Shown here: piece by piece, positions 2,345 through 9,390 of the stretch | Position numbering within the stretch: position 1 is the stretch's first letter | How the letters are laid out: each line of letters begins with the position of its first letter | Source: Neophaeotheca triangularis | Taxonomy: Eukaryota | Assembly: GCA_054600435.1 (NCBI GenBank) | Contig: BAAIJX010000033.1 | Span: 1 to 64,000, forward strand | DNA: 64,000 nucleotides | Direction of reading: 5' to 3' | Notes under the pieces: generated by a model | Seen by the model: the letters and a program-made list of their open reading frames with translations, nothing else | Database searches by the model: none | Told to the model about the DNA's origin: nothing | Position numbers and translations under genes: made by a program

Positions 2345-3646
2345 ATGGCAAACTTCTTCGATATCCGAGCACGCCAGGCGGCGGCAGCAGCCAATGCCTC
2401 AAGCTCATCGAAAGTACCCATTTCAGAAACGCCTCGTTTACAGCCATGGGTGGAAAAATAGTAAGACCCAACCACGCCTGTCCTGTCCTGTCACACTCTC
2501 AAGCCCCTCTACTAACCTACATCCCCAAGCCGTCCAAAGTCCCTCGACGATGTCGCCTCGCAAGACCACACCGTCACGGTCCTCCGCCGCACCCTCCAAT
2601 CCAACAACCTCCCACACATGCTCTTCTACGGGCCCCCAGGCACAGGCAAAACCTCCACAGTGCTCGCGCTCGCCAAACAGCTCTACGGGCCGGAACTGAT
2701 CAAATCCCGCGTGCTCGAACTCAACGCTTCAGACGAACGCGGCATCTCCATCGTGCGAGAAAAAGTCAAAGACTTTGCGCGCATGCAGCTCTCGAACCCG
2801 CCCGCCGGGCCCGCGGGCGTCGAGTACCGCAAAAAGTACCCGTGTCCGCCGTACAAGATCATCGTGCTCGACGAGGCGGACAGCATGACGCAGGATGCGC
2901 AGAGCGCGCTGCGCAGGACCATGGAGACGTATTCGAAGATTACGCGGTTTTGTCTCGTGTGCAATTATGTTACGAGGATTATCGATCCGCTTGCGAGTCG
3001 GTGTAGCAAGTTTCGGTTTAAGAGTTTGGATGAGGGCAATGCTGGGAGGAGATTGGGGGATATTGCTAAGTTGGAGGGGGTGGGCATGGAGGAGGGCGTG
3101 ATTGAGACGCTTTTGAGGTGTAGTGAGGGGGATTTGCGGAAAGCGATTACGTTTTTGCAGTCGGCGGCGAGGTTGGTGGGAGCGACGCAGCCGCAGGGTG
3201 GGCCGGAGAAGAAGAAGCGAAAGCGCAAGGTGGAGGACGAGGAGGATGAGGAGAGCGGCGATGCTATGGATGTGGATGGTGCTGCCGCGTCTGCCCCGTC
3301 GCTACCCATCACCGTCCGCAGCATAGAGGAGATTGCCGGTGTCATTCCGCCGGCGACGATCGAGACTTTGACGACGGCCATGCAACCCAGCACCAAGGGC
3401 ACGACGTACGGCAAAGTCTCCAAGGCGGTCGAAGATCTTGTCGCAGAAGGCTGGAGCGCGACACAGCTGGTCACTCAATTGTACGAGCAAGTCGTGCTGT
3501 CCGATGAGGCGACCGGAGATTGGCAGAAGAGCAAGATTGTCATGTGCTTCTCCGAGACCGACAAGAGGCTGGTGGATGGGAGTGACGAGCATCTGACTAT
3601 CCTCGACTTGTGCTTGCAGATTGCTGGCATTCTTGGGCAGAAGTAG
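2345..3646 (+). CDS. RFC2: Replication factor C small subunit (yeast Rfc2 / human RFC4 type), 2 exons
   Basis: MANFFD start. Intron 2461-2529 restores PWVEKYRPK. Walker [26 protein letters not shown] and GDLRKAI motifs are present. Confidence 0.93.
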
Positions 3647-4498: not shown

Positions 4499-6651
4499 TT
4501 AAGCAGGTTGCTGGAAAGCGTCGGCAGGTAGCTGGTCCTTGACGCCTTGGAAAGCCTCCAACGCCCTCTGAGGGTTCCATGCGACCTGCTCGAGACACTC
4601 TTTGGAGTAGAACAGGGTCATGTTGGTGGCCTTGGACAGCTCGGCGCACATTTGCTCGGCCATTTCGATGGTGAGGCCGTTGGGGAGGGCTGGCACTGGT
4701 GGGGAAACGCCGCGCTGGTGCTGTTGTTCTGCTGTGCGGTCGTACCCGGTGATGTCCTCGGGCTCGAAAGCGTCGGAGCCGCCAAAGCAGCGAACGACGA
4801 GCATGTCGCTGACTACACGTACGCCAGAGGAGCCGCCTGGACCGATGATGAATGTGCGGTCGAAGCTTCGCTTCTTGTCGGTGGGCTGGCTAGTGCTTTT
4901 GTCGGTTTCGTTGAATTCGCCGTGGACTGTGATGCAAAAGCCGTCGACAGCTTGGCCGTCGTTGTTGGGGACGCCCGGCTGGATGTGAGCCTCGATCATC
5001 CACTTGCGCGCTTCAGAAGCGAGGTCTGGGTGTTTGGTCCCTGGGAAATGGGCCCAGGCATCGGCAATGGCCTTGGTGCCGACGAAGCGACGCTTCATGC
5101 GTGCTGGCAACTGTTGGATTTTCTTCAGGTTGCGGCTGTCCCTAATGTAGTCGTTCCATGGCGTCCTTTCCTGGCCATCTGTGGCGGGGTCGGTGGGGGC
5201 TCTAGTGTTGACGGCGTAAGAGAAATCTGATTGCTCGTCGTAATACATGGCGGCGAGTGCGGGGCGGTCGGCGTCGAAACCGGCGAATAGGTTTCGGACA
5301 AAGGTCTCAGCAATGCCACCCTCGTCCTGGAACGCGGGGCTGCGAACAGGGAATGGCAGCACGGGCTTGGCTTGGTTGGTGACATCTTCTTCCGTGCGGA
5401 CCTGGACTCCGTTGAGCATGCGAAGAGAAGGCCACCATTTCATAACCGTCGTGATGTAGTCGGGCTCGTTTTGCTCCAAAGGGTTGCCAGTGAGCATGAG
5501 GTGTTGTACGTGACGAAAGCGTTTGCGCCACCCGATGAGTGCGCCAGTCTTGTCCAGCTTGTTGTTTGAAAGGTCAAGGTTCTTCAGCTTTGGAAGAGTC
5601 AAGGAAAGCTTGTCGACCGGGTTGAGGTCGGAAAGGTCATTGTTGGAGAGTGAGACGCTTTCGATGGCGGCATACATCTCCTCATCCTTCTCGAATGACT
5701 TCTCCAACACCGCCATTAGGGCAGGGAAGAACTTCTCGGTCGAGCTCTGCTTGTCGAAAACGCTCTTGTTCTTCAGAATCTCTTCTTTGCCGAAGGCGGT
5801 GAGATCGAGGAGCTTGGTATCGGCGTTGTAGCGGGCTTCGAGGAGGGCCTTGAGCATCTCCTTCAAGTTTTGAGTTTCGGCCTTGTGGTCCTTTTGGTCG
5901 CGGCCGAGCTTCTTGACCTCGATGTTCACACCCGCCCAGGCATAGCCATTGAGGCGTATGATAGATCCGAAATCTTCCGATGGTATGCTGATGATCAGGG
6001 CGTCATCTTCAACACGAGACTGTTCTGTAAGTTAGTACTGGTTCGATGGCTCGGCGCCGATCAACCAGGGGTATAAAGCAAGCCGAGAGGGCGCATCGCG
6101 GTCGTCGTCCTGAGATTGGCTGCAAACGATGGCAGACCGGATGTAGCAGCTCCTCGCGGCAGTAAAAAGCGGCCACCGGCGCCGAGTCGATGACGCAGGC
6201 GACAACATACCTTCTTGATCTTGACACTCCTAGCTCTTGATCCAAGCTTGGTGCTTGCCTTCTTTTCCAGCCACTTCACCAACGAGCTCACTCCGCCATC
6301 TTGACTGTCCGAAGCCTTGCTCTTGCTCCAGCCTGTGACTTTCAACTCGACCAACCCCTTGCGCTCTCCCACCGGGGTTCCTTGAGTGGCAGCTTCTTTG
6401 AGTGCCTCTCTCTGCGCAGCTGAGCCTGCAAGATGAGCAGCGAGCCTTGGTGCCCTAGTCGAGCCCGGCTGCCTCCCCGCACCCTTCACCACGCCGCTCT
6501 TCTTGACACCTGCTCCGCCTCTGACTCCTGCGTCCATCTTGACATCTCCATCTCTGTCTGCGCGCATCTTTCCGCCCATACCGCCGCGCCTCTTTCCACT
6601 GGGACCGGTGGGGGCACCAACCGGCGCTCTGGTGTTGTTACGTGTGACCAT
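4499..6651 (-). CDS. MEX67: mRNA export factor Mex67/NXF1 (basic N-terminus, RRM, LRR, NTF2-like, UBA/TAP-C), 2 exons
   Basis: Exon 6651-6211, intron 6020-6210 (GTATGT..TACTAAC..CAG), exon 6019-4499. LRR (LKNLDLSNN), NTF2-like (RSFDRTFII) and TAP-C (TNMTLFYSKECLEQVAWN..LPADAF) motifs are present. Confidence 0.93.
6050..6186 (-). promoter_or_regulatory. Putative structured RNA element (long hairpin) in the MEX67 intron
   Basis: Nested inverted repeats CUCGGCGCCGGU/AUCGGCGCCGAG, GCCG/CGGC, GAGG/CCUC, CAUC/GAUG, CGGUC/GACCG and UCGUU/GACGA. Several mismatches are G-U pairs on the sense strand. Confidence 0.65.
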
Positions 6652-7761: not shown

Positions 7762-9390
7762 ATGGGATTTCAACAAGGTACTTGATGTTTGCCGGCCAAG
7801 ATGTACTTAGCGGGCTAACATGATTAAGACACGCTACCGGCAGATCTTCAGAAGGCATGGGACCAGCTGGACCATCTGTTCTGGGTTGGCAGCGACAAGT
7901 TAAGGCAAATTTCCCAGCGATTTCAAGAAGAGCTTCAGGAAGGTAAGACAATGTCGTCTGCGCAGCGGTACCTCTCTGCCGTTTATGGTGTAGATGCTGA
8001 CTCCAGGCAGGATTGGAAGAAGATGGCCGCAACATTGTCAGGGCAAGCCCAGGAGTTTGGTTTTCTGAGAGTGCTAACACGAAAACAGCCAATGAACATT
8101 ACATGGGTCCTCGGCTTTCCTCATGGCCATGAAAGGGGCTCGTTCCTTACCCTTGATGTTGGCGGTACCAATTTGCGAGTCTGCTGGATCACCCTAAAGG
8201 AGCGCCAAGGCGAAACCGATGTTGCTCAGAATTCCTACAAGCTTCCAGATGGGCTGAAGGAGGGTGATGCTGAGGAGTTATGGGGTTTCTGCGCTGAATC
8301 TTTGCAGGCTTTCATCAATGAGCAGGGTCTGAGGGGCACTGCCGAAGAGCCTCTTCCCCTGGGTTTCACTTTCTCCTACCCAGCGATGCAAAAGTACATT
8401 GATCATGGAGTACTACAAACGTGGACCAAGGGTCTGCAGATCTCTGGTGTCGAAGGTCACGATGCTGCCGGTCAGCTGAGGGAGGTTATAGAAAAGAAGA
8501 ATCTCCCCGTTCGTCTGGTGGCTCTGATTAATGACACGACGGGCGCGATGATTGCTTCCGCTTACAATGACGCGGACACCATAGTAGGCGCCATTTTTGG
8601 CACTGGGTGTAACGCCGCATACATGGAAGACTGCGGCTCAATTCCGAAGCTCGGAGATATCGATGGCCTCTCGGCAGACACCCATATGGCGATCAACTGC
8701 GAGTACGGGGCTTTTGATAACGGCCACCGTGTCCTACCACGCACCAAGTACGATGTGAAAGTCGACGAAGGTTCACCCAAGCCTGGAGAGCAGACCTTCG
8801 AGAAGCTCAGCGCGGGCTTATACCTTGGCGAGATCTTCCGCCTGGTACTCGTCGACTTGCAGGAACAAGGCTTGATATTTCAAAATGAAGATATAGCGCT
8901 ACTCCAACAGCCATACATCCTTGATACGGCTTTCCTGACGAGCATTGAAGACGACACCTCCGTAGGCCAGACCGAGACAGCAGAAAACTTCCACGCCACG
9001 CTGTCTCTTACCCCTTCGGACCACGAACTGGTCCTCTTCCGCAGGCTTGCAGAGGCAATAGCCGTGCGAAGCGCTCGACTATGCACCTGCGGGATTATAG
9101 CCATGTGCCGAAAGAAAGGCATCAAGTCGGGCCATGTTGCTGCCGACGGTAGCGTGGCGAACAAGCATCCGCAGTTCAAGAAGCGTTGGGCGAAAGCTAT
9201 GGCCGAGGTGCTGGAATGGCCTGATGACAGGAGGGAGGATCCTATCATCATAACCAGCGCGGAGGATGGGAGTGGGGTGGGTGCGGCTGTTATTAGTGCC
9301 ATGACTTTGGAGAGGATAAATAAGGGGCATACGGCTGGAATCAGTGAGGAGGCTGTGAGAAAGATGGCTGGGCAGTCATCAAGGCTGTGA
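7762..9390 (+). CDS. Hexokinase-family protein (divergent paralog), 4 exons, C-terminal SRL
   Basis: ATG 7762, with introns at about 7778-7828, 7943-8010 and 8037-8088. Motifs LDVGGTNLRV, LGFTFSYP, WTKG, INDTTG, IFGTGCNAAY, INCEYGAFD, FEKLSAGLYLGE and AEDGSGVGAA are present. Confidence 0.9.

Follow-up and report, generated by a model that had tools for sequence, protein, structure and literature searches.

A conserved stem-loop candidate in the long MEX67 intron of Pezizomycotina, probably a cis-acting RNA element

Does the oversized intron of a fungal MEX67 gene merely separate two exons, or does it take part in the control of the gene? Mex67, like its animal orthologue NXF1, is the exit gateway for nearly all nuclear mRNA, and how its level is set in fungi is not known. 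The question is raised by a 64,000-nt stretch of DNA, hereafter the window, from Neophaeotheca triangularis (GenBank assembly GCA_054600435.1, contig BAAIJX010000033.1, positions 1 to 64,000), a fungus of the class Dothideomycetes and order Neophaeothecales. An earlier note on this DNA, made from the sequence alone, had drawn the MEX67 intron as one long hairpin with a symmetric internal loop and had proposed it as a counterpart of the constitutive transport element (CTE) of animal NXF1. The comparison of orthologous introns reported here points to a different and smaller part of that hairpin, namely an apical core of some 50 nt, which is strongly conserved in sequence and is probably a cis-acting RNA element of the MEX67 pre-mRNA.

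The gene can be assigned to MEX67/NXF1 because the protein exhibits the NXF leucine-rich repeat (LRR), NXF_NTF2 and TAP_C domains in Pfam together with a weak RRM_9 match, which covers residues 138-184, spans the exon junction and reaches 21.9 bits vs. a cutoff of 25.9. By reading of the open reading frames (ORFs) on the minus strand, exon 1 comprises 147 codons and ends AAG/GUAUGU, exon 2 comprises 506 codons and begins right after ACAG, and the joined exons encode 653 amino acids, i.e. the same length as a database protein named for Neophaeotheca triangularis with which exon 2 is 100% identical. The gene model agrees with the earlier note on a single coding-region intron of 191 nt (6020-6210, minus strand), which is in phase 0 and interrupts the RRM-coding part. 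Introns of Pezizomycotina are mostly about 50-70 nt long.

For comparison, 28 Mex67 proteins were aligned and the alignment was used to retrieve 47 loci from metagenome contigs, of which four without upstream DNA (L027, L028, L041 and L045) were left out. All 41 usable Pezizomycotina-like loci have an intron at the same codon between exons 1 and 2; with N. triangularis this makes 42 introns, 31 of them distinct, which measure 161-206 nt apart from a single one of 350 nt with an uncertain donor site. The taxonomy of the loci is approximate, being taken from the best named protein matches. Dothideomycetes are represented by loci that are Cladosporium-like (L003-L010, L022, L030, L040), from Aureobasidium (L016, L017, L018, L020, L024, with L018 and L020 99% identical to an A. 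pullulans protein), Friedmanniomyces-like (L026 and L047, as well as L027, which lacks the intron region) and Saxophila-like (L002, L021), the further loci being other Dothideomycetes. Besides these, there are Lecanoromycete-like loci (L032-L036; best named matches Dirinaria, 59%, and Psora), Helotiales (L037-L039, L046; Lachnellula, 80%, and Leptodophora, 83%) and one Eurotiomycete-like locus (L029; Rasamsonia, 60%), and the long intron at this codon is kept in all four of these groups.

In the alignment of 30 of the 31 distinct introns, the 350-nt one being excluded, the prominent features are the splice signals and a single internal block at 6096-6147, where column identity is 0.76 compared with 0.48 and 0.44 in the flanks. 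A dedicated alignment of this core retains 23 segments, eight distinct introns being dropped, namely L017 because its core is identical to that of L016, and L015, L029, L031, L037, L038, L039 and L046 because no alignable core is visible in them. Over these 23 sequences, the mean pairwise identity of the core reaches 0.72, compared with 0.68 for the last 90 nt of exon 1, 0.57 for the first 180 nt of exon 2, and 0.41 and 0.36 for the intron flanks. The word ACGRCGRC alone occurs in 22 of the 31 distinct introns. An intronic block better conserved than the adjoining coding sequence across several classes of fungi, both filamentous and lichen-forming, is a strong pointer to control.

A covariance model built from the 23 cores matches N. 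triangularis and 34 of the 41 loci with E-values from 1e-5 to 1e-17, as is expected by construction for training sequences; there is one copy in each of these loci, invariably within the MEX67 intron and in sense orientation. Elsewhere in the 293 kb, the model returns only the marginal L031 intron (E 0.75) and two noise matches (E 4.3 and 8.2). An nhmmer profile built without the Lecanoromycete-like rows recovers all five such loci, with the match where the intron lies (E 1.4e-7 to 4.5e-7). The core is found in Neophaeothecales (N. triangularis) and in Cladosporium-like, Aureobasidium, Friedmanniomyces-like and Lecanoromycete-like taxa. As a control of specificity only, exact-pattern scans for the core gave no hit in 596 Gb of prokaryote genomes and none in viral contigs. 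In Helotiales, an apical hairpin was considered as a homologue of the core and rejected, as the model gives no match at E<=10 and the loop word CCAAUC varies within the order.

The hairpin of the earlier note thus survives in part. Its apical stem-loop (CGGUC/GACCG, UCGUU/GACGA and the loop) is present in 34 of the 41 orthologous introns; the basal stem and the GCUUUWUAC loops are each restricted to one of the 31 distinct introns, that of N. triangularis, and the symmetric internal loop can no longer be upheld as a conserved protein-binding feature. The basal stem is made of two copies of the self-complementary word CGGCGCCG, which is likewise private to N. triangularis (1/31).

Regarding N. 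triangularis by itself, all the motifs of the earlier note were found again in place, and the fold drawn by hand is essentially the computed minimum free energy (MFE) structure, in which 50 of the 62 pairs belong to one hairpin spanning intron nt 21-168. In the ensemble, the basal stem pairs with a probability of about 0.95 and the apical stems with 0.64-1.0. The MFE of -67.1 compares with -59.6 +/- 4.1 in dinucleotide shuffles (z -1.82), 9 of 200 shuffles folding as well, so that the fold taken alone is only marginally special. The antisense strand folds equally well (z -1.77), which defeats, on a single sequence, the argument that G-U mismatches reveal selection on the sense strand. Complementarity between the two intron flanks exceeds that of shuffled ones (z -3.04, p 0.010), and GCTTTWTAC occurs three times in the window, two of them in the intron, with 0.49 expected. 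The GC-richness ascribed to the intron is real and mild only, with 0.59 vs. 0.54 for the window.

Whether the core is an RNA structure was approached with the stem drawn from single-sequence folds, against column shuffles as controls. In the core stems, 86.6% of the cells pair vs. 84.5% after column shuffling; both sides change in 5 of 14 stem pairs, a count reached by 20 of 500 shuffles, and the covariation score of 0.160 vs. 0.133 is reached by 8 of 500. G-U cells number 31 and A-C cells 14, an excess which fits the sense strand, and one pair runs from U-A through U-G to C-G within the Cladosporium-like group. An additional pairing is possible between intron nt +5 to +11, a GUCGUCG-like stretch near the 5' splice site, and the CGACGAC of the core 3' strand. 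This pairing is available in N. triangularis (6197-6206 with 6099-6110, minus strand) and in L001, L004, L007, L025 and L026, with a U-A to C-G change on both sides in L001 and L004, and is absent from L002, L011/12, L016-19, L023 and L032; judged from these sequences, it may form in place of the core stem, as a competing alternative.

Around the core, 8 of 30 introns, from about six lineages, have flanks whose complementarity exceeds that of shuffles at p<0.05, where about 1.5 such introns would be expected. RNAalifold predicts for the clade of L011, L012, L019 and L023 a long hairpin tipped by the core plus a small 3' hairpin (33 pairs, four with compensatory change), and for the four Helotiales introns a comparable long hairpin (27 pairs, two compensatory); in the clade of N. 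triangularis the core stem alone is common, and in the Cladosporium-like clade no core stem is predicted, a small hairpin including the 5' splice site appearing instead. A zipper stem, i.e. a long-range helix between the two ends of the intron, is thus predicted in N. triangularis (6186-6171 with 6067-6050, probability about 0.95) and, among orthologues, in the said 8 of 30 and as consensus helices in two clades, which makes the long hairpin partly conserved as far as alignments and folding can tell.

Smaller hairpins were noticed near the splice signals. In the Cladosporium-like loci L003-L010, L022 and L040, within intron nt 1-18, GUAUGU is predicted to pair with ACAU..AC located 6-12 nt downstream; its six pairs are kept in 8 of 8 sequences and would occlude the splice site. 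In L029, L032-L036, L037-L039 and L046, a hairpin CAAGG/5-7 nt/CCUUG occupies the last 30 nt or so before the branch site, its CCUUG strand overlapping the non-consensus branch site UGCUAAC, replaced by UACUAAC in L038 and L046. The introns of Dothideomycetes have the branch site UACUAAC, often with a separate small hairpin slightly upstream.

What would become of the unspliced transcript can be read from the stops. In N. triangularis, the first stop in frame with exon 1 is the UGA at 6063-6061 (minus strand), which is also the sole stop trinucleotide of the intron apart from the UAA of the branch site, and an in-frame stop is present in 30 of the 31 introns. Few stop trinucleotides occur in any frame across the 31 introns; those lying before the branch site number 46, 20 and 19 in frames 0, 1 and 2, an enrichment of frame 0 by about twofold, and 34, 17 and 15 when counted in 24 representatives (chi-square p 0.007).

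The position of the stop is itself patterned. In 19 of the 31 introns (N. triangularis, L003-L010, L016-L019, L022, L023, L025, L032, L033 and L040), the first in-frame stop comes from a conserved word YUGAW located 3' of the core, at distances of 118, 124, 130, 133, 136, 145 or 148 nt from the 5' splice site, all in frame, and the word stays in frame even where indels shift the frame of the core. Both this and the frame-0 pattern are post hoc observations on related sequences; with this reserve, the placing of the word fits a retained transcript that meets ribosomes. Two other uses of the intron were considered and rejected. A conserved peptide made from the retained intron is not indicated, since openness hardly differs among the three frames (open for at least 110 nt in 20, 24 and 26 of 31 introns), the reading frame of the core varies across all three among lineages and no peptide is conserved. 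Nor could the UUUGCAG of the core generally serve as an alternative 3' splice site, its AG being missing in the Cladosporium-like loci, L011/12 and L032.

That the MEX67 intron holds a functional conserved cis element of some kind is, in our judgement, highly probable, and a cis-acting RNA element of the MEX67 pre-mRNA is probably its nature, this being the reading best supported by the comparison of sequences. Because it sits in the only coding intron, because retention brings in an in-frame stop and because there is precedent, the element probably controls splicing vs. retention of this pre-mRNA. It would be an ancient sense-strand element, namely a sequence-conserved apical stem-loop of about 50 nt, which in several lineages including N. 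triangularis would top a long, lineage-specific helix between sequence that follows the 5' splice site and sequence that precedes the branch site. The helix would help the oversized intron to splice, and the conserved stem-loop would be a candidate protein-binding site which, once bound, would divert the pre-mRNA from productive splicing; the unspliced RNA, with its in-frame UGA at 6063-6061, would yield no Mex67 and would be expected to be degraded. The most economical regulator would be the gene's own product, Mex67-Mtr2, the intron then acting as a negative-feedback sensor whose logic would be analogous to that of the NXF1 intron-10 CTE and of the introns of YRA1 and RPL7B.

The full feedback model, in which Mex67-Mtr2 is the ligand as the earlier note proposed, is attractive; it is advanced tentatively and remains somewhat doubtful. 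If Mex67-Mtr2 is indeed the ligand, the stem-loop would offer a natural RNA of high affinity to a receptor that is mostly treated as unspecific, and would give structural work a handle; its parallel with the vertebrate CTE would bear on the evolution of intron-retention feedback. Bolder, and unlikely in our view, is a dedicated MEX67 RNA sensor kept in Pezizomycotina for several hundred million years, whereby Mex67-Mtr2 would recognise the stem-loop and export or block the unspliced pre-mRNA, which would be translated up to the frame-locked UGA and destroyed. If true, this would be the fungal counterpart of the vertebrate NXF1 CTE and the first sequence-specific RNA target of the fungal bulk mRNA export receptor, and intron-retention feedback would be recurrent, even ancestral, in NXF1/Mex67 genes.

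Several results weigh against an RNA element of this kind. In the core, the paired fraction is barely above that of the column-shuffled controls, partners slid by three columns still pair at 62-71%, because CGACGAC is repetitive, and RNAalifold predicts zero pairs on the core alignment of 23 sequences. In view of these three results, the core is first of all a conserved sequence, for which a sense-strand stem is plausible and weakly supported; covariation, a check named in the earlier note, is weak in the core stem, with the said 5 of 14 pairs changing on both sides. Whole-intron folding is ordinary, with a mean z of -0.37 and 3 of 31 introns below -2, and the mean structural distance from 5' splice site to branch site, 13.1 vs. 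15.0 in shuffles (Wilcoxon p 0.09; 21 of 31 introns shorter), is not clearly reduced. Regarding distribution, the core scores low with the covariance model in L003, L022 and L040, has no match at E<=10 in L015, L029 and the four Helotiales introns and is marginal in L031, i.e. on sequence it is degenerate or absent in some lineages; the two yeast-like loci (L042 and L044, about 30% identity) have, by reading, a continuous RRM region without intron at this site. Many of the sequences are related, so that the counts are not independent events. Finally, Mex67-Mtr2 of fungi is regarded as binding RNA largely without sequence specificity and as needing adaptors.

Among the alternatives, the one that fares best, possible if on balance unlikely, is that the conserved intronic element serves splicing or regulation via a factor other than Mex67, without feedback by the gene's own product, be it as a structural splicing enhancer of the long intron (a zipper stem with an apical protein site) or as a sensor for some other protein of mRNPs, of splicing or of decay. 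The conservation evidence as a whole fits it equally well, long-range pairing of the flanks recurs, zipper stems are established in yeast (RPS17B/RP51B; RPL7B, PMC12311795), and the pairing of core and 5' splice site region in one sub-clade, with its compensatory change in L001 and L004, hints at a structural switch that needs no Mex67. A purely structural enhancer would leave unexplained the near-invariant loop and the single-strand-like word ACGACGACC, as well as the persistent length of the intron, and the test of 5' splice site-to-branch distance is not significant; for the switch, the pairing near the 5' splice site is missing in the loci listed above.

Much less probable is that the conserved block acts as DNA, i.e. 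as an intronic transcription-factor site or internal promoter whose RNA fold is incidental. It is indeed chiefly the primary sequence that is conserved, no consensus pairs emerge from RNAalifold in the core, the N. triangularis hairpin folds equally on both strands and the loop often reads CCAAT. The T of this would-be CCAAT box is not kept (CCAAC in L012; CCAAA in L025; CCAAG in L026 and L032), for which reason a CCAAT box was rejected; one-sided stem changes go mostly to sense-strand G-U rather than A-C, one pair follows the U-A, U-G, C-G path in the Cladosporium-like group, and the enrichment of in-frame stops is a signal at the RNA level.

Fungal introns of 150-250 nt are frequent hosts of small nucleolar RNAs (snoRNAs), and a hosted small stable RNA, snoRNA-like or otherwise processed, would account for both the intron length and the conserved core. 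We hold it to be very improbable here, in spite of the H/ACA snoRNA reported in an intron of another Pezizomycotina gene by Gao et al. (PMC8216456). Searches with Rfam gave no family at E<=10 in the gene region, none at the gathering score in the whole window and no intron match at E<=1 in 11 orthologous loci, whose sole match lies outside the intron; ARAGORN returned no tRNA-like RNA, and no conserved C/D or H/ACA boxes were seen by eye in the alignments. That sole match is to the C/D-box snoRNA Afu_298, at 4621-4694 of L032 on the minus strand of the locus (42.4 bits, gathering score 40, E 0.017), some 600 nt beyond the MEX67 stop.

That the intron is simply long and without function, its palindrome being the work of chance or of local duplication, as the marginal single-sequence statistics (z -1.8, antisense equal) and the private basal stem and loop motifs might suggest, can be set aside as negligible, conservation excluding chance: the core beats the neighbouring exons even though the Mex67 proteins are just 43-60% identical to that of N. 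triangularis, and all 31 distinct introns have stayed long.

The cis-acting RNA element thus remains the preferred reading, and the features on which it bears are collected in the table together with the exons and the parts of the hairpin that are specific to N. triangularis.

Features of the MEX67 gene and of its intron in the N. triangularis window (RNA letters and descending coordinates follow the sense, i.e. minus, strand)
Feature	Position	Strand	Remarks
Conserved core, about 50 nt	6096..6147	-	apical part of the hairpin; alignments; covariance model, 69.4 bits
Core P1	6140-6135 with 6103-6099	-	CCGGUC with GACCG; pairing
Core P2	6129-6124 with 6110-6105	-	UCGUUU with GGACGA; pairing
Core apical loop, 13 nt	6123-6111	-	GCAGCCAAUCUCA
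Best-kept core word, 3' strand	6108-6100	-	ACGACGACC
MEX67 intron	6020..6210	-	GUAUGU 5' splice site 6210-6205; UACUAAC branch site 6037-6031; AG 6021-6020
Basal stem, 5' arm	6171..6186	-	CUCGGCGCCGGU (6186-6175), then GGCC; species-specific
Basal stem, 3' arm	6050..6067	-	GGUU, then AUCGGCGCCGAG (6061-6050); starts with the conserved module-2 word YUGAW
Large internal loop, 5' side	6162..6170	-	GCUUUUUAC; not conserved, motif in 1/31 introns
Large internal loop, 3' side	6071..6079	-	GCUUUAUAC; not conserved
MEX67 exon 1	6211..6651	-	ATG 6651-6649; 3' end encodes first half of RRM
MEX67 exon 2	4502..6019	-	stop 4501-4499; second half of RRM, LRR, NTF2-like, TAP-C

Some further observations concern the locus at large. 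A possible second acceptor, UUACAG (6025-6030, minus strand), precedes the annotated AG by 5 nt and is only 6 nt away from the branch-site A; its use would change the reading frame. An 8-nt perfect inverted repeat links the intron at 6189-6196 (GCGUCAUC, sense) with exon 2 at 6000-6007, the exonic arm being 13-20 nt past the 3' splice site. Two short contigs overlap the gene, one of 237 nt, of a library of unknown kind, that spans 6070-6306 unspliced over the border of exon 1 and intron, and one of 151 nt within exon 1; both are uninformative on expression or retention. The neighbouring long ORFs, judged by eye only, look like a replication factor C small subunit with the AAA+ motif GPPGTGKT (2516-3646, plus strand) and a hexokinase (7828-9390, plus strand).

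The earlier note knew of no description of such an element, and this holds: none of a conserved fungal MEX67-intron element was found in the literature searched, subscription journals aside. The main texts of two screens for structured RNAs, Li and Breaker (2017) and Gao, Jones and Rivas (2021), supplements aside, do not contain 'mex67', 'NXF' or 'export' (PMC5640933, PMC8216456). In Pezizomycotina, structured RNAs are described in the RPS13 intron, the RPL12 5' untranslated region and the lysyl-tRNA synthetase intron, and are thought to bind the encoded protein (PMC8216456). The MEX67 core resembles the elements of these screens in being single copy and conserved in Pezizomycotina pre-mRNAs, and differs from them by far less covariation than the screens demanded, for which reason they may have missed it. 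Features known from autoregulatory introns such as those of RPL7B, RPL30 and YRA1 are found in MEX67, namely a single-copy conserved element in an intron of the gene's own pre-mRNA and an unspliced transcript predicted to be non-productive through a premature stop (UGA 6063-6061; 30 of 31 introns). From sequence, then, this is an apparently undescribed conserved intronic element of the autoregulatory type, in a gene and a clade where none is described.

Among known systems, the closest by gene is the CTE of NXF1 intron 10, whose 53-nt core is reported from human to zebrafish and coelacanth, within a retained intron (PMC4338338); an intron-containing transcript also exists for sbr of Drosophila (PMC8151460). 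Simian type D retroviruses (MPMV) carry a CTE as well. In the vertebrate as in the fungal case, the gene of the bulk mRNA export receptor, NXF1 and Mex67 being orthologues, has an intron with a stem-loop core of some 50 nt whose primary sequence is strikingly conserved where the rest of the intron is not, and retention gives a premature stop. The differences are as many. The MEX67 intron is a different one, within the RRM-coding part, whereas the CTE intron of vertebrate NXF1 comes after the RNA-binding part. What MEX67 conserves is an apical hairpin loop and a 3' strand, whereas the CTE conserves an internal loop; the MEX67 intron has no Rfam match at E<=10. Moreover, the vertebrate retained RNA makes a functional short protein, whereas the read-through tail of MEX67 is unconserved and in three frames. 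By the features compared, the MEX67 element cannot be filed as a CTE and is at most its analogue by gene and logic.

In Saccharomyces cerevisiae, modular elements of the YRA1 intron act with Mex67-Mtr2, and the unspliced pre-mRNA is exported and destroyed (PMC2864733). As in MEX67, this is a gene of the export pathway with modular elements in an unusually long intron; unlike MEX67, YRA1 encodes an adaptor and not the receptor, belongs to a different subphylum, shows no known sequence relation and relies on decay via Edc3. In the RPL7B intron, a zipper stem occurs together with a conserved structure to which Rpl7, the gene's own product, binds and thereby represses splicing (PMC12311795). There, a long-range helix draws the 5' splice site towards the branch point beside a conserved structure, as the basal stem and the core of MEX67 would do, and the possible alternative pairing of core and 5' splice site region in one sub-clade adds to the likeness; in RPL7B, however, the two structures are described as mutually exclusive and protein binding has been shown, whereas in MEX67 the core tops the helix within one and the same MFE structure.

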